DNA of 63,985 bases, the filler included, from Hausera hauseri (lineage: Eukaryota), in assembly GCA_046269625.1 (NCBI GenBank). It is 12 parts of 12 records of this genome, joined end to end, with 100 filler letters (N's around TTAATTAATTAA, not from the genome) between each part and the next. Parts side by side here need not be neighbours in the genome. Positions count along the whole stretch, not along the records: positions 45,457 to 54,854 come from JBJURY010388812.1; 11 more parts are not named here. One strand, 5' to 3'. Both the position numbers and the translations under genes were made by a program. Of the stretch, positions 28,241 through 54,854 are shown piece after piece. Positions within the stretch are counted from its first letter, which is position 1, and every line of letters starts with the position of its first letter. The notes below the pieces were generated by a model. That model saw only the letters and a program-made list of their open reading frames with translations, was not told the origin of the DNA and made no database searches.

Positions 28241-29499
28241 TGTGGTGCCGCGACCGTGGGCGCCGACGTAACTCTGTCTTTTGAATCAGACATAGATCTC
28301 AACATCATGGTGTTTTATTGGATGCAATTAGATATTTTGTGTTTAAGGACAGTGTACTTGGGAGCGTGGGTTCGTGTCCGTGGATGGATTCGGTCTCCCT
28401 CATCGACATCATTGATTATAATATTTGTTGTTGTTGTTGTTGAACTTTTATTGTAATGCTTATATGGTTGTATTTGGTATATTTTGTATAACAGTAAATG
28501 GATGTTTTATAGTCTGTTGAAATTTTGTTATAATAACTTTTTAATCAGAAAAGTTTTATTGATATGTTCAATAATTTTTGTACAGTAGTTTTATCCGACT
28601 TAGCTGTTTTATTTTATTAAGTTGTAAAAAATTAGAGGCCAATTGTTTAAGTTTGGTAAAAAAAGAGACACGATAACTACAAAAAATACATAATAGAATT
28701 TTAATCAATTGATAAAAAGGTGTTTTAATAAATCTAGTTCTTCGGTTGTTCTGAATTCTCACTGTTAGAAAATGGTTCGGATAACATGGTTTTCGTTACA
28801 GAAGAAGCGTGGGTATTCATTAGTGGCGTCGGATTTCTGGGTCTGGATAGATCAGATCCGACGCCCACATACGTTGGTTTTTTGTTCAGTTGATCTTTTC
28901 CCTTATATTTTTGAAGCAGAGATAACAAGATTCCAACACTGGTGTCAGAAGTGGGATGAAGAACATATCTTTTCCATCGTGAAGCTCAATAGCTATCGAT
29001 GTATCCCAGACTCGCCTATCCGAAGCTGTGGCCGAGGTTTACATTTATTTCAATTTTATTTAGACAATGAAATTATTAGTGGTGATCGTCATTTACTCAT
29101 GTCACATTTTTTGACCCACTTTTTAGCTTTATTATTTTTTATGTACACAAGTCATGTCTGTGTTCGAGTATTGTGTCGATGGGGGGAATCGGATTCATTC
29201 GTGGCTGTGACCTTTGTGCTCCTCAGTGCGTTGTTCTTGGGCATGTGGTGTCAACACTACCCAGAAGTGTTATTTCACACTATTTTACTTATGATAATTT
29301 GTATTTTACCCTATTTTCTCATAAAAACAATAACACTATAAGTACTTTATACAACTATATAAATTATGGATCATGCATACAAAATATTGATCCTGCATAC
29401 ATTTTGAATACATTTTTCATTCATATTTTATTTGATAAATCAGTACTCAGTTTTCTCAGCTGCAATATAGAATTGAAAGCCGATGCGAAGGAAAAGGAT

Positions 29500-31110
29500 G
29501 TTGAATTTTATTGTTTGCGTTGTTTTGAACTGAAGAAATTTGTAAATTACTGCACATCAACTATAGAATACAAAGAAAAACCTACCAATGTTAAACCAAC
29601 TGAAAAACACTATGTGAGACAGTTATCTGAAGGTATTTTGCGAAACTATTTCAATCTCGATTTATTTGAATATCCTGAAACTGATAACAAAAGTTTGGAA
29701 AAGACTCAAACAATCTCTAGAAAATTAAAAGAAGTTTTTTAAATTTCAAAAGAAACTGATGATACTCAGAAACGAGAGAATATATTAAAGCAGCTTTCAA
29801 ATTTAGGATTGTTTAGTTTGCAATTGTCGGAAATTTATAATGGATCTGGTTACAGCAATTTGATTATGGGACTCATCCATGAGGCAATTTCGTCAGATGT
29901 TAGATATTTATTGAATTCATATTTACCGCATATGCTTTCTATACACGCTATTTCTACTGCTGGTAGCGAAGCGATTAAGAATAAAAAATTAGTACAAATA
30001 GAGTATGGAAGTTTTTCTGTAATTTCAAGCATCGGTAATTGTTTCACTTTAGAGCCAAAATATCGATTGACGGCATTTCACGACCAATTGGGCGGTACAT
30101 ATATTTTCAATGGGTCCATGCGTGTTGTATTTGGATCTGATAATGTATTTGTGGATGACCTTAGCTCGAGAAAATGATCAGGTTCTTGTTGGTTTCCTAG
30201 TGGATTCCAAAGCCACAGGAATAAAAAACGGTTCATTAAGCACCGTTATCCATTTTGACAGTGTCCGTATTCCAAAAGGGAATATGTTGACAGGATGTGA
30301 TGGAGTTGAGTTTGGAAGAAAGTTTACTTATATCAAAGATGTGTCGATTGCGGTTGCCTCAGCGTCCATACTGCGGTCTATGTTGGAAATAACGAACAAT
30401 TTTATTAGCACCAATAACGCTTTTGGAAAGAGTCTACAGAAACTTGAAACCATTCAAAAAGACGTTGTCGATCTGATGTTGGATGCATATGTTACTGAAA
30501 GTGTTGCCTACTTTTCCTCAGGTTTACTCGATAACCTGCCGAATAATGATCTGTTTGTTGAATGCTCATTGGCAAAAATATTTAGTTTGGAGGCATTATG
30601 GCGGTCTTTAAATTGCACTATGAAACTCCAGGGTAATAGAGCATTGTCTTGTGACAATAAGGGTTTTGTTCAAATGTATAAGGATATGAATTTACTCTGC
30701 TTTAATCAACTATCATCATTGCATTTAAAACAAATCGTTACTAAAGAATGTATGACTCATGTATTTTCTGAACTACAACACGATAAATACATTGTCAACT
30801 CATTCAGTTATAATCTCCATCAGCGTGTCGGATACGAGACTAAGGAATTGTACAGGAAACTGTACGACATGATGAAAGTCGTCCAAAAGTTGATCAAACG
30901 ACCAAAGTACGCATATGATGACTTTCTCATTCTCAATTTATACTGCATCCTTGTCGATGTGCACACATTAATCAGTGTATTGAGTCGTGCATCACAGTCC
31001 ATGTCCATTGGATTGCGAAGTGCAAATCATGAAGTCAATTTGATCATTGTGTTTGTCGACCAATGTACGAGTCGTATTAACAAACTTGTCGACGACCTAT
31101 TGAAGAATGT
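29500..31110 (+). pseudogene. ACAD9: Divergent ACAD9/VLCAD-like acyl-CoA dehydrogenase, disrupted (in-frame TAA at 29740, frameshift ~30150)
   Basis: LFEYPE, LKQLSNLGLFSLQLSEIYNGSGYSN, CFTLEP, YIFNGS, FDSVRIPKGNML, AFGKSL, AYVTESVAY, ECSLAKIFSLEA, VLSRASQSMSIGLRSANHE are collinear with ACAD9. Confidence 0.75.
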
Positions 31111-32275
31111 GTTGCACACGATGGTTCTTCGAATTGTAGGTATCATTGATTTGGTTTTCTCATTGCAAACATTCACGAAGGGTGTACTGGATAATAAAAT
31201 GATAATAACGTCAAATAAATATCCAATTTGGTGGAATAATAAAGCCGGATCAAATTTGTTGTTGAAGGCAAGCAGGCTATTTAATCAGTTCATTATTAGT
31301 AAATTCTATCCAAAAACTTTAAATAAAAATAAAATCATGTTACTTAAATGCTGTTGTTGGAATTTTGCTCCGGGTCTTATTAATAAGTTAATCGATTCAA
31401 CGAATCTTGAGGAAGAAGATTCGGCTGTTGACCTTTGTCTGGAATTGATTGTACGGGTTGACAACGTGATGAAATATACGGAACTAACAACGCGCATATT
31501 CCATGCTGTTCGGTTGGATAATTGTTACAGCACACCAAGACAAGCTGCACAATACATGCTCGATAGTGTTAGAGCCGTCTCTCTGGATCTCTATATCGTT
31601 GCTGGACTGTCTACCGGTAGCGAAGTTATTGATACATTTTTTACATTTAATCACTATTCATTACCATTGAATACATATATTATGTTACATTCTGAAACAT
31701 ATTTTTCAACCACCTCTCTTATTGTAACATTGAATTGTAACATTGCCTATATCAATCTGCAACACACATCCGATGACACAGGAATGTATGTTAATGGAAT
31801 AATAATCCTATACTTCTTTTCATTTACTTTTCAGGGTGAACCGAGTTTCAATAATAATACCGCACGTAAAATAATCTGCATAATCTACCATAATTTACAT
31901 GTAGACTTACCAATTTCTGTTACCTTTAAAATCTATTTTGACAACTGCAAAACCACTATTCTCACCTTTCTAACACCGTGCAAATATTTTAATTTCTTGT
32001 CTTGTGTGGATTACGTACCGGTCGACCAAACAGTATTATTAAAGGTTTTGCAACTAAATTCAACAACAAAATCTTCAATCATTGAAATAAAAAAATTCTT
32101 TTCTTATTCTACTGGTTCCACTTTAAAAGATCGGACACTCTGGTTTTATCTCTATTCAAGTACTGATTTTTCGCATATTTTCACGCATTTTGGTAGTTGC
32201 ACTACCATGATTATTAACATAACCTATCGCGACCTCCTCCTACCATCGAGTGGTAATTTTTCAGATCGAGCTTCG

Positions 32276-45456: not shown

Positions 45457-45678
45457 AAACAATCTTTCAAAGATGCTATAACAACACGAGCATTTGAAGC
45501 ATTACCAGAAATGAAACACCATGCATTGGGTGCACTGAAGGAAGGTATTAATGCAATTAGTGAACAACAGCAGAAAGGCACAGGATTGCGACTTAGTCGA
45601 AAACGAAAACTACTACGAAACATAAAAAATTCAACTATAAACAAAAAGAAAAAGTATGCAGGAACTATATTTGCTTAA
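45457..45678 (+). CDS. C-terminus of a basic virion core-like protein
   Basis: Own translation: ...EQQQKGTGLRLSRKRKLLRNIKNSTINKKKKYAGTIFA*; QxGxG motif plus basic tail, stop 2 nt before the MCP ATG. Confidence 0.65.
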   Translation, partial: KQSFKDAITTRAFEALPEMKHHALGALKEGINAISEQQQKGTGLRLSRKRKLLRNIKNSTINKKKKYAGTIFA

Positions 45679-45680
45679 TA

Positions 45681-46934
45681 ATGTATGCAGCTAAAACCGA
45701 ACTATCATTATTTGATCATCAAATTCCTCAGGTAGTTGTTGAAAGCTCAACGTTTGAAGAAATTTATCCAAAAGATTCAATTACTGGATACACTAGTTCA
45801 CAAATCGAATTCAATATTATTGGATCAGATAACGATTATCTGGACTTGAATGATACTTTATTAATAGTTAAAATGAAAACAGTAAAACATGACGGAAGTA
45901 ATATATCAACTGAATCCGATATAACACCGTCTAACTACATTTTACACACGCTCTTCAAAGAAGCAACGTTGACACTAAATAATACAAAAGTTGAGGATAC
46001 GAATGATACGTATATGCAAAAGGCTATCATTGAAACTACTTTAAATTTCGGATCAGACACGAAAAACACTTTTCTACAGTCTATTGGATACTACAAAGAA
46101 GACAGTAAACGTAAGGATTTGATTAAAAAGTCAGCAATTTTCACACTTTGTGGACCGTTAAATCTGGATTTTTTTGACCAGCCAAAATATTTGCTACCTG
46201 GTATTAATGTAACAATTAAACTGACTCGAAATGTTGGTTCGGTTATTTACAAATACACAAAGACAACTACAGAAACGGTAGATATAAATCCGCAGTCATA
46301 TATTATTGAAGCTAAATTACTCGTACGACGTGTACGTGTAGATCAATCAGTAATGATCGGACATCGTCAGGGTTTGAATCATCAAAATGCCATATATCCG
46401 TTTCAAAAAACGAAAATTGTGAACTTTACCATTCCGAAAGATTCCCATGGTGAATATAAAGACAATTTGTTTTCCGATGAACGATTACCGAAATTCGTTT
46501 TGATAGCATTTCAATCATCAAAACAGGCAAGTGGTGATTATGGTTCATTTTGTCATACGTTTTTAAATTTTGGAGTCAAATCAATAAATCTAATGAGAAA
46601 TGTTGATTATCGAGAAATGTATACAATGAATTTTGATGAAACCAATCCTAACTATACTGAAGCCTATGTACAATCCATTATTCGAAATATGGGCCTTATG
46701 AACAATGATCGAAACAATGGAATTACAATGACAGATTTTAAGGATTCTTGTTCATTTTTCACATTTGTTCTGGCACCAGATTTTGAAGTTGATCAGGCAC
46801 AAATACCGAAAACCGGCAATTTGAAGTTGGATGTTCGTTTTCAAAAAGCTTTAACTGAATCAATAACAATGTATGCTTACGGAGTATTTGATACGGAAAT
46901 ACAAATTACGAAGGACGGTGTTATAATTGTATAA
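45681..46934 (+). CDS. Major capsid protein (double jelly-roll, Polinton/adintovirus hexon-type), 417 aa
   Basis: KTELSLF, IEFNI.G..DYLDLNDT, LHTLF, GPLNLDFFDQPKYLLPG, LPKFVLIAF, GNLKLDVRF.KAL; expected size and position. Confidence 0.9.
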   Translation: MYAAKTELSLFDHQIPQVVVESSTFEEIYPKDSITGYTSSQIEFNIIGSDNDYLDLNDTLLIVKMKTVKHDGSNISTESDITPSNYILHTLFKEATLTLNNTKVEDTNDTYMQKAIIETTLNFGSDTKNTFLQSIGYYKEDSKRKDLIKKSAIFTLCGPLNLDFFDQPKYLLPGINVTIKLTRNVGSVIYKYTKTTTETVDINPQSYIIEAKLLVRRVRVDQSVMIGHRQGLNHQNAIYPFQKTKIVNFTIPKDSHGEYKDNLFSDERLPKFVLIAFQSSKQASGDYGSFCHTFLNFGVKSINLMRNVDYREMYTMNFDETNPNYTEAYVQSIIRNMGLMNNDRNNGITMTDFKDSCSFFTFVLAPDFEVDQAQIPKTGNLKLDVRFQKALTESITMYAYGVFDTEIQITKDGVIIV

Positions 46935-46968
46935 ACAAATAAAGATGGTGGTAAAACAGAAATTTTTA

Positions 46969-47350
46969 ATGAAGTAAGTATTAATATTGAAATTACTAAC
47001 AATTTCAAATTAGTACTTTTCAGATTGAAACCGCTTTAAAACGCAAGTTGGGCAGTCATTTCAAAGGTGTCTATCCTCTAGAACGACTTCCGGATTATCT
47101 AAAACCAGGAGGATACGTCATAAATTCACATTCTAGTAATTTGCCTGGTGAACACTGGATCGCCATCTATGTTCGACCTGAATTAATTCGTGCATTTGAT
47201 CCACTCGGTATGTATTATCCTATAAAACTAGTAACCACACTGGAACGAATGGACCAACCTGTGGAATACAATTCAATCATGTATCAGAATCCACTAACAA
47301 CATTATGTGGGAATTACTGCATCAGTTGGCTTGTTAAACAATATTCTTGA
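46969..47350 (+). CDS. Adenain-like cysteine protease, spliced: join(46969..46973,47014..47350)
   Basis: FKGVYP, VINSH...PGEHWIA, AFDPLG, YQ...TTLCGNYC (His-Asp-Gln-Cys); splicing yields MNTFQIETALK. Confidence 0.88.
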
Positions 47351-47393
47351 TTATAAACAATTATTGATTTTAAATATAAAATGTGTCACGGAA

Positions 47394-47870
47394 ATGTCAG
47401 TTTTCTTTATTGACTTCGAAGCATTTCTAGATGAAAACGGTAATTATGCTATAAAGGAATTATGCGTAATGGATGTATGCAATATCTTTTACCCTAAACA
47501 CTGGATATTTCAAGCTGGTTTTCCAATAAATATCCTTTCGGATAAAGTCAGACGAAAAAACAATTTCCTTACACGCTATCGACATGGAATTAGTTGGGAT
47601 GATGGAGAAAATGATTTTCAACCAATAAGCATTGTGTCACATCTTGATACAACATCACTCTACTACGTAAAAGATCAAGTAGATGGTAAGAAAATAAAAA
47701 CTCTTAAAATTTATTTCCCATCACTACGAATTGTCAACTATAATGTTCGGAATAATCTTCTATTGAAAGTACCTGATCATATCACGTGCCCATGGCGTAA
47801 TCATGACAGTACTAATTGTGCTTACAAGAAATGTTTGCAGTTATGCTTACATTATTTATCATGCAAATAA
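47394..47870 (+). CDS. Polinton accessory protein with DEDD/RNase H-like N-terminus, 158 aa
   Basis: FIDFEAF...YAIKELCV, HGISWDDG, C-terminal C..H...CA..KC cluster. Confidence 0.65.
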   Translation: MSVFFIDFEAFLDENGNYAIKELCVMDVCNIFYPKHWIFQAGFPINILSDKVRRKNNFLTRYRHGISWDDGENDFQPISIVSHLDTTSLYYVKDQVDGKKIKTLKIYFPSLRIVNYNVRNNLLLKVPDHITCPWRNHDSTNCAYKKCLQLCLHYLSCK

Positions 47871-47996
47871 ATCATTGGTTGTTACATTGTATGTATAGTA
47901 TATATAATCATATATATTTTATGCATATCATTTTTTTTTAATTTTTAATAATCCTTTGATATTAATGTTTAAATAAATTTTCTATTTTAGAATTCA

Positions 47997-50900
47997 ATGT
48001 CAACGCAATTCAATATCACAAACAAACAAAACATGGATGCATTAGACATGATTCCTTCCAAACGAGCACGAATAGAAAAAAATGTAGAGAGAGATTTAAA
48101 TGGAAATGTAGTTAATCTAATGTTTGATATAACGGATAAACATATGAAAATAGTTAGTGTTCCCGAGAATATTAAAAAACAACTTGAACAGGAAATTGAA
48201 AAAATAGGGACATGTAAAATTCAGTTTGGAGTGAAACTCAGGTTTCAGAAAGAGGAAGACAAAAAGGATGCATGCATATCCAAACGAGCTGTTTCTTATT
48301 CAGAAACATTTCTGCGGGATGGATCCAGTTCTCTGAATGAATCAATAGAAAAATATTCGGAACAGAGTAGTGGATGGCGAGTTGAAAAACTGTTAGAAAT
48401 ATTTTTTATTCTTACAAAGACAAGTGAAATAATATATTTATCCGGAAAGTCGTACATCCCAAGCCCGAGGGCCTTGAGTAAATCAAATTCAACAGTAAAT
48501 GTGAAGAATGATGATAATTGTTGTTTTATTTACAGTATTCTGGCTGTTTTAAAATACAATGTCATTACTGGAAATAGACATCGACCACAAAATTATATAC
48601 AATATTTTAAGGAAATTCAATTTAATGAAGAAAACATGCCTATGAAAATAAATAGTATTCCTCAGTTTGAACGACAAAATTCAAAAATATCGATCAATGT
48701 CTTTAAATACAGGGAATCAATAGATTCAGATGATGATGAGAGAGAAATATTTAAAAACCCAAATATTGATGTTATCTATCGAACGCGAAATCCTACCGGT
48801 ACACCAGTGAATTTATTATTGTTAGAAGATACAGACAAATATCATTATGTGGCAGTCACAAATTTAGATAGATTACTAAACATCAATAAGAGATTTGTTA
48901 GAATTCATCGCAAATGGTGCCATGTATGCTTACATGGATTTAAATCAGACGTGACATACAGAAAACATATTTCCCTATGTAAATCCAATCCGGATGGTAC
49001 TACTATGTACACTCTACCAGAGAATAATGAACTAAAATTTGCTGACTGGAGCAAAACAATATCACCCGCATATGCAGTTTATGCTGACTTCGAATCAGTT
49101 TTAATACCCGATGAAAAATATACTCAAAAGCATATGCCAGCTGCTGCCGGTTTGTTGCTCGTGGGTTTAAATGGGGATATAAGATACTATGATTTTGTTG
49201 GTGACAGTTGCATAGTCCAATTTTTGAAATGTTTGGAATTGTTAGGTAATGAAGTTGTTTTACAGTGGTATAAAGAAAATTCAAATACCCCAATGAAACC
49301 GTTAAATGCGGAACAATGGAATAGTTTCCTGTCATCAAAAAATTGTTATTTATGTCAGAAGACGTGTAACAAACTTGTACAAGACCATGATCATTTTACC
49401 GGGCAATATTTGGGCTCTGCATGTAATAAATGCAATTTGGCAAGAAAAATTCATATAACATTACCAATTGTCTTCCACAATCTCCGAGGTTATGACATGC
49501 ATCATATTCTTAAACATGCTATTAATAAATTCCCAAAGTGGAATATTAAATGTATACCTCAGTCGATGGAAAAATTTCAGGCATTGATCATCTGGACAGA
49601 CTCAATAACTCTGAGATTTATTGATTCTTATCAGTTTATGAATGGTTCTCTTGCCGCTTTAGCCAAGAACCTTAACGATTACCCAATAACCAAGAAACGG
49701 TTTTCTAGCGATATGATTAGAGGAAAGGGAATATTTCCGTATAATTTAGCAACATCCATTAGTGTATTGCAAAATATGACAGAACTTCCACCGAAATGGA
49801 ACGGTGTTTCAGATGAGGAATATACTCATGCTCAACAGATGTGGATTAATACTAACTGTAACAACATGTTAGATTACATGATGGTGTACCTTAGTCTGGA
49901 TGTGCATTTGTTAGCAGATGTGTTTGAAATGTTCAGAAAAAAATCTATCGAAGATGACGAACTTGATGCAGCTAACTTTTATAGTGTACCCGGATTATCA
50001 TGGGCATCAGCTCTAAAATCACTTGAACAACCGATGGAATTATTGCAATGCCCAGAAATGTATCATTTATTTGAATCGGGAATTCGAGGAGGAATGACAT
50101 TTGTTAACAAACATCATGTGAAATCTACTGAAGAAACAAAACTATTGTACATTGATATTAATAATTTATATGGGTGGGCTTTGAGTCAAAAATTACCATT
50201 TCGCAATTTTCAATGGATAACAGATGACAATGAACTACAATTGATATTTAATAATCTACAACAGACAAATACAGATGGAAACATAGGGTATGTTGCAGAA
50301 GTTGATTTAAACATTCCGGAATTTTTACATGATTACTTGGATGATTTACCAGTAGCGCCAGAAAAATCCTGTCCACCAGGTTCAAAAGTTATGAAGTTGA
50401 TGTTAACTCATTTACCGAAAAATCATTATATAGTTCATTGGAGAATTTTGAAATTTTACCAAAAACTTGGAGTTGAAATAGTAAGAATACATAGAGCAAT
50501 TAGATTTGACCAGGATTACATTTTTAAGCAATATATAGATGAAAATACAGAAAAGAGAGCACGATCAACAAACAAGTTTAATAAGGATTTTTATAAGTTG
50601 AAAAATAACTCACTTTATGGGAAAACTGTTGAAAATTTAAAGAAACGGAAAAACGTGCGGATTTGTAATACAGTAAAAAAGCTGGTAACTTATACAAGTA
50701 AAGTTAGCTTTAAGAAGTCTATGAAAATTGCAGATGACTTAATAGCTGTATTGCTGAATAAAGAAAACGTCTGTTTGAACAGACCAATATACGTAGGACA
50801 AGTGGTTTTAGACCTAAGTAAACTCAGAATGTATCAATTACAATACGAAGAACTATCCATGTACCGTTCTGAGTTTAGTTGTGATATTCGAATTGTTGCT

Positions 50901-51380
50901 GGCGACACAGACTCTTTCTTTTTAGAATGTTCCCATGTTGATGTAACAAATCAATTGCTACCAGCAATGTTCCGGGATGGATTATTGGATACATCAAACT
51001 ATGAAAAAACACATCCTCTGTATCCGAAAACTATAATGAATAATATTGGAAAGTTCAAGGATGAAAGTGAGGGTACTAAACAGTTTATGGAGTGGATTTT
51101 CTTACGCCCAAAATGCTATAGTATTCTGACAAATGAAGGTGAAAAAATGAAAGCTAAAGGAGTAAGACTAGACATAACAGATATTACTCATGAAGAATAT
51201 CGACGAGTTTATGAGACAAGTGAACATAGAACTGTAAATCAAAGAAGTATTCGTTCCTTCAATCACCAGTTATACACGGTTGATTCAAAAAAGACAGCTC
51301 TAACATTAATAGATGATAAACGTTGTTGGTTAGAAAAGAATAGGAGTGTAGCGTATGGTCACTATTTAACGATGAACTAG
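47997..51380 (+). CDS. polB: Intact protein-primed family B DNA polymerase, 1127 aa (terminal-protein region, OTU-like protease, exonuclease with EndoVII-like insert, polymerase)
   Basis: NDDNCCFIYS/HYVAV; YADFES, FHNLRGYD, FIDSY, LDVHLLADVF; CYLC..DHDH.TG..CNKCN; YIDINNLYG, KLKNNSLYGK, AGDTDS. Confidence 0.97.
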   Translation: MSTQFNITNKQNMDALDMIPSKRARIEKNVERDLNGNVVNLMFDITDKHMKIVSVPENIKKQLEQEIEKIGTCKIQFGVKLRFQKEEDKKDACISKRAVSYSETFLRDGSSSLNESIEKYSEQSSGWRVEKLLEIFFILTKTSEIIYLSGKSYIPSPRALSKSNSTVNVKNDDNCCFIYSILAVLKYNVITGNRHRPQNYIQYFKEIQFNEENMPMKINSIPQFERQNSKISINVFKYRESIDSDDDEREIFKNPNIDVIYRTRNPTGTPVNLLLLEDTDKYHYVAVTNLDRLLNINKRFVRIHRKWCHVCLHGFKSDVTYRKHISLCKSNPDGTTMYTLPENNELKFADWSKTISPAYAVYADFESVLIPDEKYTQKHMPAAAGLLLVGLNGDIRYYDFVGDSCIVQFLKCLELLGNEVVLQWYKENSNTPMKPLNAEQWNSFLSSKNCYLCQKTCNKLVQDHDHFTGQYLGSACNKCNLARKIHITLPIVFHNLRGYDMHHILKHAINKFPKWNIKCIPQSMEKFQALIIWTDSITLRFIDSYQFMNGSLAALAKNLNDYPITKKRFSSDMIRGKGIFPYNLATSISVLQNMTELPPKWNGVSDEEYTHAQQMWINTNCNNMLDYMMVYLSLDVHLLADVFEMFRKKSIEDDELDAANFYSVPGLSWASALKSLEQPMELLQCPEMYHLFESGIRGGMTFVNKHHVKSTEETKLLYIDINNLYGWALSQKLPFRNFQWITDDNELQLIFNNLQQTNTDGNIGYVAEVDLNIPEFLHDYLDDLPVAPEKSCPPGSKVMKLMLTHLPKNHYIVHWRILKFYQKLGVEIVRIHRAIRFDQDYIFKQYIDENTEKRARSTNKFNKDFYKLKNNSLYGKTVENLKKRKNVRICNTVKKLVTYTSKVSFKKSMKIADDLIAVLLNKENVCLNRPIYVGQVVLDLSKLRMYQLQYEELSMYRSEFSCDIRIVAGDTDSFFLECSHVDVTNQLLPAMFRDGLLDTSNYEKTHPLYPKTIMNNIGKFKDESEGTKQFMEWIFLRPKCYSILTNEGEKMKAKGVRLDITDITHEEYRRVYETSEHRTVNQRSIRSFNHQLYTVDSKKTALTLIDDKRCWLEKNRSVAYGHYLTMN

Positions 51381-51579
51381 TGCTCGGTTGGAATGAATAT
51401 GTTTTGCATTTATTTGTCATTGCTTCAAATACCAGAATTCAGGAACAGTATATGACTATTTGTAAATACTGTGATTCAATATAATAATTTCTTTGTTTGT
51501 TTTCTTTTCCTTCGTAAATTTTATATAAATTTATTACATGCGTTGCCTTGAAACTTAATAATTCTGTTATAATAATCGC

Positions 51580-51995
51580 TGGCGGCACCTTCAAAGGCTG
51601 CGAATTTCTTTATATATATATATACTCAACTCGCAAAGGAAAGAAATTAGCAGTCTACAATTTAGAGGTGGTATTCCTTTATAGGTGCTCAGCTCACAGA
51701 GGAATACCACCACCGGCGGCAACTTCAAAGGAGGCGGTATTCCTTTGTGTTCTCGACTTTTCCTTCGTCGGCAACTTCAAAGGCGGCGGCATTCCCTTTG
51801 TGTTCTCGAAGTCACCTTTCTATCTAAGATTTATAGAATTCTCGAAGTCTGTGTGTTTAGCCCACATAGAAAAGACCGCTACCAGCGGTAACTTCACAGG
51901 CGGCGGCATTCCCTTGGTGTTCTCGAAGTCACCTGTCGGCAACTTCAAAGGCGGCGGCATTCCTTTGTGTTCTCGAAGTCACCTTTCTATCTACT
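51580..51995. repeat. Subterminal tandem repeats (GGCAACTTCAAAGGCGGCGGCATTCCTTTGTGTTCTCGAAGTCACCT, 4 good and ~2 degenerate copies) and putative right terminus
   Basis: Copies at ~51715, 51769, 51885, 51938; 12-bp inverted repeat 51667-51678/51700-51711; end reads AGTAGATAG on the minus strand. Confidence 0.75.
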
Positions 51996-52139
51996 CACGT
52001 CATATGTCGCACATGATACCGACGCAAATCGGTAGAGCTCGACGAGGCGAGAAAAATTTTATAGCGCAGCAAAACTCAAAAATGTTACGGGACGTCGGTA
52101 CAAGCAGAAGAAGCAAAGCAGGAAATGTGTTTCAAGTAA

Positions 52140-54854
52140 CAAGGCACGTGTTACTGGCGAAACAGTGTTCGGTTGAAAATGCCACACAATCACAGCGCTG
52201 CACGGTAAACAGGCCTATATTTGTCCCGGTTGTTCTACAGTTCATGATGATGATCAAATCAATTATGAACAATTCTATAATCAGAACAAGGACCACTTGA
52301 ACCAGTTTATGCGGTTGAAAAAACAGATACTCATGGATGCAACAAAAAGCAACAACAACAACAACAACAACAAGGAAACGTCAAGCATCCACAAGCCTTG
52401 ACGAATATGTGCAAAGCAGTAGCAGTAAGCATCAACAGCAGGAACAGCAGGAGGAGAAGATACCTGTCACATCGAGCTGTGCCCTATTCAGAGGATTTTA
52501 TTGGTGGCGTAGGCGAAAAGCTGGACGAAAAAAACGTCAACTATACGGAAAAAGGCAGGGGATGACGAATAATCAAAATTGTCACTCGGTTTTATTATAA
52601 CAAAGTCGAGTGACATAATTTACCTGTCCGGACGTTCATTCTTACCAACATCTGAGGCTCTGAAACACTCACATGCGATAGTGAATGTGAAAAATACTGA
52701 TGATGAATACTGTTTTCCAAACAGTATTCTAGCAGTATTAAAATATAATGAGGTGTCCAGGCAACATGCAAATTGTCCAAGTCGGTATCGGCAGTATTTT
52801 TCGGAACTGGATTTCGATGAAAGCTGGATGCCGATGAAACTAAAAACAACTGCAAAATTTGAACGGCGTAATCCAACACTGGCAATCAACGTGTTCCGGT
52901 ATAACACAATAATTGAAATACCGGCAGATGAAGAGATACAAAAATCCACATGTGGATATAATCTACCGCAGTCGAAAACTGAATGGACAGCCAATATATT
53001 TGTTGTTGTTGGAGCAGAAAAAGTTCCATTACGCTGCAGTGACAAATCTAGACAGACTGCTGAACATGGCACATGAACAGATCATCAAAAAACGAATGCA
53101 ATGTAAATGGTGTCCTTTATGTTTACACTGATTCAGGTCAGAAACTACATGGGAAAAGCATGTTACGCTGTGTAGACAACATTGCTTAGGAACAACAAAG
53201 TACGTCATGCCCGTCAAAAAAGCTCTACGATTCAGTGACTGATCAAAAACGGACAGTTCGGCATACGTCGTATATGCCTATATCGAAGCAATTCTACCAC
53301 AGCACAACGTGCATGACCAGAAGCATGTTCCAATCGCCTCCGGCATGCTGGTTGTACCTATTAAAGCCGATGGACAACAGAAATACTACGTTTTCCACGG
53401 ATGGAATTGTGTTCGTGATTTCCTACATCAGTGGGAGACTAGTGGAAACGGAAATCGCGTCGTGGTATAAGAATAATAGCACTAAACCCTTGGTCTGGGC
53501 AGACAAATATGAACCGCTGCTTTTCGCTGCCACTGACGAATATTACCTGTGCCACAAAATATTGCCGTTCGGTGCACAAGAACAGCTCGTACCGGATCAT
53601 GATCATTTCACTGGTCGATACTTTGGAGCAGCATGCAATTCATGCAATTTGGCAAGACGGGTGCGGACATTCCTGCCGGTGATATTTCATAACTTCAGGG
53701 GTTACGACTGTCACCATATTCTTAAATGGGCCACTAATGAATTTCCACACTGGAAACTGTCCATAATCCCAACAACGATGGAGAAATACCTGTCTCTGTC
53801 GGCACGCATAAACCAGTTCCAGGTGCGATTCTTGACTCATTACAGTTCCTCAATGAGTCTGTAGCAAAGCTGGTAAATGCCTTGCCGGATGTGCCGCTAA
53901 CACTGACAGTTCCACGCGCATATTGCACGCAGCAAAGGCATATTCCCGTATGACTTTGTGATATCGTTCGAGCGGCTCCAGACGGCAGACGAATTACCAC
54001 TGCAATGGCCCTGTATCACAGAAGTAGAATAGCACAAAGCACAGTCGTTTCGGGCAGAACTCGGCTGCAGAAACCTGTTGAACTACATGCTTCAATATCT
54101 GAAATTGGGCGTGTACTTGTTAGCCGATGTGTTTCAGACATTTAGAGCTAAAGCGTTGGCAGAAGATAGGCTAGAGCCACTCATAATTTACTCAATACCC
54201 GGAATGAGTTGGGCGTCAGCTCTGATATCACTGTATCGGGATATCGAACTATTGCAAGACCCGGGAATGTACCGGCTGTTTGATTTTGGTATTAACGGTG
54301 GCATGACTTGTCAACAAGCATCAGGTCAGTGCTACCGATACCAAATCACTGCTGTATATTGATATTAATAACCTGTACGGCTGGGCGCTTTTGCAGCCCT
54401 TGTCGTACGGTTCATTCGAATGGGTAGTAGACAGACAAGATCTTGACGACATAATGGTTAACATACCACGAGCAGACATGGTAGGCTCTTTCGGATACCT
54501 GATGGATGTCGTTATCGTGGTACCAGATGAGCTGCATTACGTTTTGGACGATTTACTGGTCGCAGCAATTAGCTAATGTCCTCCATGCCCGAAGGTGAAG
54601 AAACTGGTTATGACGCAAGAACCGAAGCTGAATTACGTGGTCCATTGGCATCTGCTACAGTTCTACATGCGGTTGGGTGTACGCGTCACACAGCTGCATC
54701 GTGCAATCCGCTTCAATCAGGCGCTGATATTCAAGGCGTACATTGATGGAAATTCGGCGAAACAAGCCGCAGCTTGCACAAAGTTCGAAAAGGACTATTA
54801 CAAGCTCAAAAACAATTCCCTGTACGGAAAAACAGTGGAAAATCTGAAGAAGCG
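52140..54854 (+). pseudogene. Degenerate pPolB copy B (same family as copy A), with N-terminal leader; truncated by the contig end
   Basis: RKRQASTSLDEY, NVKNTDDEYCF, DHDHFTG, FHNFRGYD, YIDINNLYG, KLKNNSLYGKT; internal deletion at ~52460. Confidence 0.95.

Follow-up and report, generated by a model that had tools for sequence, protein, structure and literature searches.

The comparative evidence makes it very likely that a 40-nt interval at the start of an adenain-like protease gene, carried by a Polinton/Maverick element in the Hausera hauseri assembly, is a real spliceosomal intron. The start codon and the first two bases of codon 2 lie on one side of this interval and the remainder of the gene on the other. 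From the sequences compared here we place the probability at about 0.7 that this is a spliceosomal intron of the ordinary host type, which the ancestor of its clade gained once and which is removed constitutively. That the interval is spliced appears highly probable.

The element and its setting

The protease locus lies on contig JBJURY010388812.1 of the Hausera hauseri assembly, at positions 45457-54854 of the window, by which we mean the whole 63,985-nt stretch of DNA that was analysed. The assembly is fragmented (869 Mb), and this 9.4-kb contig is a partial element that starts just upstream of the capsid gene. On the + strand it carries, in order, the capsid gene, the protease gene, a 158-aa ORF and a gene for a protein-primed DNA polymerase B (pPolB); coordinates are given in Table 1. 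The rve integrase, the packaging ATPase and the element termini are absent from the contig, which holds part of the element. The predicted structure of the capsid protein is of moderate confidence (mean pLDDT 62), and among the matches listed for it all are double jelly-roll capsids (best E 6.9e-12). With both pPolB and a double jelly-roll capsid, the element is a Polinton/Maverick (adintovirus). The 158-aa ORF had no meaningful match in Pfam, and it may be exonuclease-like, judging by a motif.

Table 1. Features of the protease locus and neighbouring genes, in window coordinates
Feature	Position	Strand	Basis or remark
Major capsid protein gene, 417 aa, single open frame	45681..46934	+	ORF and ATG register agree with relatives
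TATAAACA, likely TATA-like promoter of the protease gene	46930..46937	+	Overlaps capsid stop codon, 39 nt before ATG
Coding part of exon 1: start codon and two bases of codon 2	46969..46973	+	ATG and GT intact in 70/97 copies
Phase-2 GT-AG intron (very likely), 40 nt	46974..47013	+	Signals, conservation, precise absence in L135, L136 and L144
TACTAAC, possible branch site of the window copy only	46994..47000	+	1/84 scored copies; 0/19 host introns
TTTCAG (Phe-Gln codons), second AG 10 nt past the presumed productive acceptor	47018..47023	+	Kept at a silent site
Exon 2 of the adenain-like cysteine protease, 111 full codons	47014..47350	+	Alignment, profile, fold
Conserved 158-aa ORF, unbroken, with TATAAACA at 47352	47394..47870	+	Start conserved in relatives
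pPolB ORF, first ATG 47997	47991..51380	+	PF03175, E 3.8e-35

Several other features of the window and of related contigs were recorded. The pPolB sequence contains an Endonuclease VII-like (HNH) segment (PF02945, E 3e-5; window 48000-50900 and 53190-53864), its first 270 aa gave no Pfam OTU match when an OTU-like domain was sought, and decayed pPolB copies occur in many further stretches of the window. Between two pPolB genes, at 51600-52000, are imperfect repeats of a GC-rich unit (GGCAACTTCAAAGGCGGCGG...), possibly element-end repeats. At 29300-31200 the window holds an ACAD9-like host gene (best PDB E 2.4e-20) with long open frames, one stop and a frame change, possibly a processed or captured copy. 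In related elements, the end of an ORF in L131 is chromo-like at E 0.001, which is under the cut-off, and a Pox_A32 match (E 1.2e-5) was found in L233, a contig of the second element family (family B, below). Another contig of the same assembly, L228 (C737654), carries dUTPase and TRAF/MATH-domain genes at 54-2335, beside the exonuclease-like ORF and pPolB of a related element.

The assembly is a mixture of organisms, since its seven COX1 matches are seven different sequences (L221-L227: one vertebrate-like, five in the invertebrate code and one flatworm-code fragment). In that last fragment AAA stands opposite Asn in 3/3 cases and ATA mostly opposite Ile, which is how the flatworm code reads, and the host is thus a probable flatworm. 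Pieces identical to the window copy are also found in public runs under other organism labels, at 46808-47623 (X2), 46949-47122 (X7) and 47450-47732 (X3), and may come from close relatives, mixed samples or recent transfer.

Identity of the protease

By alignment, profile and predicted fold the encoded protein is classed as an adenain-like cysteine protease (Peptidase C5). The catalytic residues (His 47153, Asp 47198, Gln 47285 and Cys 47306) align to those of adenain, with H47 and D62 invariant and Q91 and C98 nearly invariant across 21 aligned sequences; P0010 and P0015 were excluded from the protease alignment (A1). A profile of the protease matches adenovirus proteinase (E 6.9e-7), and the structure predicted for exon 2 (pLDDT 90) has adenovirus proteinase as its top four fold matches (E 3e-5 to 9e-5). 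Searched alone, the window protease had no Pfam match (0 families, PF00770 included) and no PDB sequence match; 19/21 aligned members match PF00770 at E up to 0.1. Residues 2-15 are predicted to form the first helix (pLDDT 91-96), and this helix requires the spliced start. In the window clade the protease stops just past the helix of the catalytic Cys, at about 113 aa.

Signals at the start of the gene

The original prediction set a 40-nt interval between an ATG with a GTAAGT donor and a TTAG acceptor, with a TACTAAC branch site inside, and every coordinate proved correct: ATG at 46969-46971, AA at 46972-46973, GTAAGT at 46974-46979, TACTAAC at 46994-47000 and TTAG at 47010-47013. Beyond the acceptor exon 2 is open as far as TGA at 47348-47350. 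The accompanying claim that the protease frame lacks an ATG near its start also held up. Between 46940 and 46997 this frame is interrupted by seven stops, and it has no ATG until 47210, beyond the catalytic His and Asp. Retention of the interval in the window copy makes the third codon TAA (46975-46977). A further ATG, at 46945, shares the frame of that at 46969; it was considered as a conserved start and rejected, relatives not having kept it.

The interval is not an assembly error, because contigs of three public runs (X1, X2 and X7) span it with 0 differences. A joint skipping 46974-47013 was found in none of the contigs of seven out of nine public runs, which are not on record as RNA and so are silent on expression. 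Rfam covariance models gave 0 matches in 45457-54854.

The length of the interval is that of the host minimal-intron class, as the original prediction had suggested checking. Among 19 introns in tubulin, EF1-alpha and EF2 loci the range is 37-87 nt and the median 43 nt, with 16 within 36-46 nt and with donors resembling those of the element; two of the calls (L210 and L213, 53 nt) are perhaps mis-set, and these 'host' introns may not all belong to the host of the element, because the assembly mixes organisms. The 'perfect' branch site, which had been offered as evidence, turned out to be incidental. TACTAAC is found in the window copy only, is missing from the closest relatives (L002, L084 and L018) and occurs in none of the host introns. 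A loose YTRAY branch motif is present in 70/84 copies but is common in AT-rich DNA. Across nine lineage representatives, position -9 is an invariant T that opens a TNAA/TTAAT motif, 5-9 nt before the first AG; as a branch site this distance would suit the second AG (below) better, and 6/15 tubulin introns have a T at this position.

Conservation among copies in the assembly

A search of the assembly with exon 2 gave 5,057 candidates, of which 150 were scored and 90 examined; a search with a distant homolog gave 150 scored loci, mostly of family B, of which 28 were examined. After 21 of these 118 loci with less than 70 nt upstream were dropped, 97 copies remained, including that in the window. 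Most copies are decaying, and copies within one subfamily are not independent. An AG is present at the acceptor in 88/97 copies, and in 84/97 an ATG-AA-GTA donor block with at most one mismatch lies 28-62 nt upstream of it. ATG, GT and AG are all intact in 66/97, the other 31 being without at least one intact signal. At shifted exon-2 anchors, by contrast, 2/7,275 control positions passed the looser test.

Among the 84 copies with a donor block the interval is 29-57 nt long and in 40 its length is not a multiple of three; read unspliced, 52 of them give Met-Lys and then a stop. The donors are GTAATT in 49, GTATGT in 15 and GTAAGT in 5, which resembles the host pattern and agrees with a U2-type intron. 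Family A comprises 10 subfamilies, about 61-81% identical in DNA over the 30 pairs printed, with modal intron lengths of 36-43 nt. Family B, at about 50-55% identity, has an intron of 50-51 nt at the same site. Nine lineage representatives, chosen for intact sites, have pairwise identities of 0.19-0.61 in the intron interior (+7 to +20) and of 0.19-0.44 in the 10 nt before the ATG. A pattern search for the intronless junction gave 16 matches in the assembly against 3 in the control, all 16 of which were read and none of which continues as protease; no processed (intron-free) copy was found in the assembly.

In one subfamily (L006, L007, L009, L012, L016, L021 and others) the 42-nt intron is stop-free in 12/18 copies. 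Retention there would add 14 mostly hydrophobic residues to the protease, which may be chance. Because this intron is open, database entries such as P0002 run into it. The expectation that ORF callers mis-start these genes is borne out more widely: the nine best of 20 aligned database homologs and P0014 have wrong-looking starts, seven running into the intron and three being truncated.

Relatives and the origin of the intron

The original prediction proposed looking for a phase-2 intron at the 5' ends of related Polintons. Besides family B, 6/25 metagenome loci (four lineages, 50-55% identity) have a GT-AG interval of 37-43 nt at the identical site. Three further loci, L135 and L136 (both M-D-S-L-Q-I) and L144 (M-N-T-I-E-I), have an ATG in the exact spliced register and no interval, and L140 likewise begins M-D-T. 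L137, L138 and L145 are without upstream DNA, five loci have a longer N-terminus and L154 is of a distant type. Of 20 aligned database proteins, seven, the more distant ones, begin with Met exactly two residues before Thr1. These starts agree with the earlier claim that removing the interval restores an MNTxQI-type N-terminus. Viral contigs gave 17 distant loci, and the four that were read (L113, L114, L120 and L125) encode another protease type and are uninformative.

In a capsid tree built by a quick method from 17 rows, L135 groups with nine intron-bearing rows in a clade (SH-aLRT 100), and all seven rows outside it are without the intron. L135 stands beside the intron-bearing L131 (support 87), and both begin ATG-GA. 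A protease tree (35 rows, with the assembly copies cut to 13 open-frame representatives) needs two changes; monophyly of the intron-bearing rows, meaning one origin without loss, is not rejected on it (AU p 0.35). From these trees a single intron gain in the clade ancestor is likely, and a precise loss in the L135 lineage probable.

The conserved splice ends, the pattern of presence and absence and the stops met in unspliced reading make the dependence of this protease on host splicing, as first proposed, very likely. Doing without splicing would call for a start at TTG 47048, a frameshifted capsid-protease fusion, or a decayed copy with a chance insertion. Hexon-Adenain frameshift fusions have been proposed for some adintoviruses (bioRxiv 10.1101/2024.03.25.586562), and three database proteins begin downstream. 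A start at 47048 would, however, delete most of the first helix, whose codons are conserved, and we rejected it. A fusion was rejected on the seven stops that close the protease frame. Chance insertion sits badly with splice ends conserved in two families and in other samples and with an interval precisely absent in sister elements, and an unspliced gene is on this evidence barely tenable.

The capsid stop and protease ATG overlap or abut in L133, L134, L135 and L140 (TAATG, TGATG, TAA-ATG), whereas the window has a gap of 34 nt. An overlapping stop-start of this kind is the layout of termination-reinitiation.

Proposed expression of the gene

The motif TATAAACA occurs three times on the + strand of 45457-51500 and not at all on the - strand, against 0.57 expected. 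The three sites, at 45636, 46930 and 47352, precede the ATGs of the capsid gene, the protease gene and the next gene by 45, 39 and 42 nt respectively; judged from this spacing, each gene probably has its own promoter. The motif also occurs at L130 1538, and the distances to genes are 39-52 nt overall, even where it lies within the coding end of the upstream gene. Among the assembly copies, 52/75 have a TATA[AG]A no more than 55 nt from the ATG, and ATAAACA is found 30-35 nt before the ATG in 8/11 metagenome loci, there overlapping capsid codons. The motif could instead be a Forkhead-type site.

A TATA box usually lies about 30 nt from the transcription start. Host Pol II would then transcribe the protease gene from the TATA-like motif at 46930, with the cap near 46960, about 10 nt before the ATG, and such a cap would leave the unconserved ATG at 46945 outside the message. 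Exon 1 would be about 14 nt long and the first AG (47012-47013) the productive acceptor. Splicing would yield a protease of about 113 aa beginning M-X-T-F-Q-I, where X is the junction codon, with the first helix included, and this product would mature the capsid. The intron, probably gained once in the clade ancestor, would likely be removed constitutively to make the enzyme. It would persist because, in an element copied as DNA, it disappears only if it is deleted precisely or if a spliced RNA is copied back.

The window clade appears to tolerate host minimal introns in other genes too. The pPolB N-terminus of L130 (1590-2243) can be fitted, by a greedy procedure, with a chain of five 42-46-nt GT-AG intervals and open exons, implying that the uptake of host-type introns in this clade was not confined to a single gene, and this weakens the idea of a brake specific to the protease. 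Intron-like intervals are also seen ahead of the pPolB ATG in L228 (3850-4010). In the window (47985-47997) the phase-0 opening of pPolB directly follows a TTTTAG, as it also does in L018, where the first ATG is missing. The neighbouring genes had been described as unbroken. This stands for the capsid gene and the 158-aa ORF; pPolB is likewise a single open frame, but its TTTTAG opening makes a spliced leader possible. A shared exon 1 spliced to pPolB was rejected, being out of frame by inspection.

A possible second acceptor

The silent-site constraint on a second AG is unexplained by a plain constitutive intron. This AG closes the Gln codon at 47021-47023, which is CAG in 73/76 family-A copies and in 9/9 informative subfamilies, as against 108/397 for other Gln codons. 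The third base of the catalytic Gln91 is G in five subfamilies and A in four, and only 4/51 conserved columns have an invariant third base. The probability of CAG in nine of nine subfamilies is about 4e-4 if they are independent and about 0.02 over the 51 columns, figures that overstate the case because the subfamilies share ancestry. An AG at +10 is present in 60/64 family-A and 10/20 family-B copies. Splicing from the same donor to it shifts the frame and meets a stop after 4 codons in 52/58 copies; the CAG at 47023, proposed earlier as an acceptor for another upstream exon, is thus probably not the productive cis acceptor, but it is conserved and may be of importance. The second AG may serve as an alternative acceptor, assist the use of the first AG or receive a trans-spliced leader, and it is the strongest pointer to regulation found here.

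If the two acceptors, 10 nt apart, compete, with use of the second AG or retention giving a dead message, the start of the gene would be a control point at which the protease is capped or confined to certain cells. The retention of the second AG at a silent site and the early stop that follows its use fit such a role, and there are precedents in the P-element IVS3 (PMC7776569) and in C. elegans, where splicing in the germline moves to the proximal of two adjacent acceptors (PMC4484395). Against it, family B keeps the second AG in only half of its copies and an AG at +10 is missing from L133, L134 and L141 in the metagenome data; the signal would look identical if the site were a splicing enhancer or helper AG; and the intron of one subfamily reads through without a stop. 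As for the earlier suggestion that splicing might limit or delay the protease relative to the capsid gene, the protease gene seems to carry a TATA-like motif of its own, a relative has five similar introns in pPolB, and one lineage has no intron. On balance we consider competition between the acceptors rather unlikely.

Spliced-leader trans-splicing would make a different use of the same CAG, since a leader ending in AUG would join there in frame to the Ile codon at 47024, and a capsid-protease polycistron could be resolved in this way. In its favour are the phase (0) and the conservation of the CAG, the phase-0 opening of pPolB after TTTTAG, and a COX1 fragment that reads AAA as Asn in the flatworm manner. 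The leaders reported from parasitic flatworms end in ATG without exception, and acceptors often serve both cis and trans splicing (PMC12582326). Trans-splicing would, however, leave unexplained the conserved ATG-AA-GT block, the conserved first AG and the conserved Thr/Ser-Phe-Gln codons that precede the CAG. Moreover, that the host is a flatworm is no more than probable, and the TATA-like motif lies 39 nt before the ATG. We judge this route highly improbable. The two ideas can be combined into a three-way RNA switch at the protease start, in which the first AG gives the enzyme, the second AG or retention a dead message, and a leader an in-frame start at the second AG; such a switch seems distinctly unlikely from the sequences at hand. 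If true, particle maturation would be restricted to cell types whose splicing state permits it (e.g. stem cells).

Our preferred reading remains the ordinary, constitutively removed intron. An old, clade-wide protease intron implies that a virion gene is transcribed by Pol II in the nucleus and spliced by the host, and that selection on it has lasted. To our knowledge Maverick virions have not been seen, and the splice junction would report late-gene expression amid thousands of dead copies. For an element that replicates as DNA, the locus is also a clean example of an intron being gained and probably, in one lineage, precisely lost; the intron is one reason that databases hold wrong N-termini for these proteases. 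Should the second acceptor be used, it would be a first hint of splicing control over Polinton particle maturation.

Comparison with known systems

In the literature covered by our searches we found no report of a spliceosomal intron in a Polinton protease. Animal Polintons/Mavericks (adintoviruses, eupolintoviruses; PMC8097293, PMC8502044) have the same run of pPolB, double jelly-roll capsid and adenain-like protease genes and reach thousands of copies. Intact vertebrate Mavericks are described as having no introns in 134 elements (PMC8097293), the core genes of nematode Polintons are called intronless, with introns only in cargo (bioRxiv 10.1101/2022.07.12.499685), and the portions consulted of PMC8502044 and bioRxiv 10.1101/2023.08.22.554363 mention no spliced core gene; PMC6431247, PMC5718144, PMC8629364 and PMC10899757 provided background only. 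Where these accounts describe intronless core genes, the elements studied here have a clade-wide intron in a core virion gene.

The protease shares with adenovirus proteinase (Peptidase C5, PF00770; 1avp, 1nln) the His-Asp-Cys and Gln catalytic residues and its core fold (TM by query 0.68-0.73), but lacks about 90 residues at the C-terminal end. In adenovirus the late genes as a rule gain a spliced leader ahead of the ORF, and two exons encode pTP (PMC11304566). In the parts of that account consulted, an intron inside the coding sequence of the adenovirus protease is not seen, unlike in the window protease.

Introns have been reported in other Polinton-like elements. The introners of dinoflagellate eupolintoviruses (PMC12166617) are mostly young mobile insertions, and the introns of cryptophyte Polinton-like viruses (PMC12220804) are self-splicing group I introns of 309-376 nt in protists. 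The intron described here differs from both in being old, 37-57 nt long and at one fixed site, with diverged interiors and without an Rfam match; the fixed site and diverged interiors argue against its being an introner. A closer parallel in one respect is the P-element IVS3 (PMC7776569), where a transposon enzyme likewise needs host splicing and the retained intron blocks the active protein. Regulation of IVS3 has been shown by experiment and yields a repressor, whereas regulation in the window element is putative and retention there would give only a two-residue peptide.
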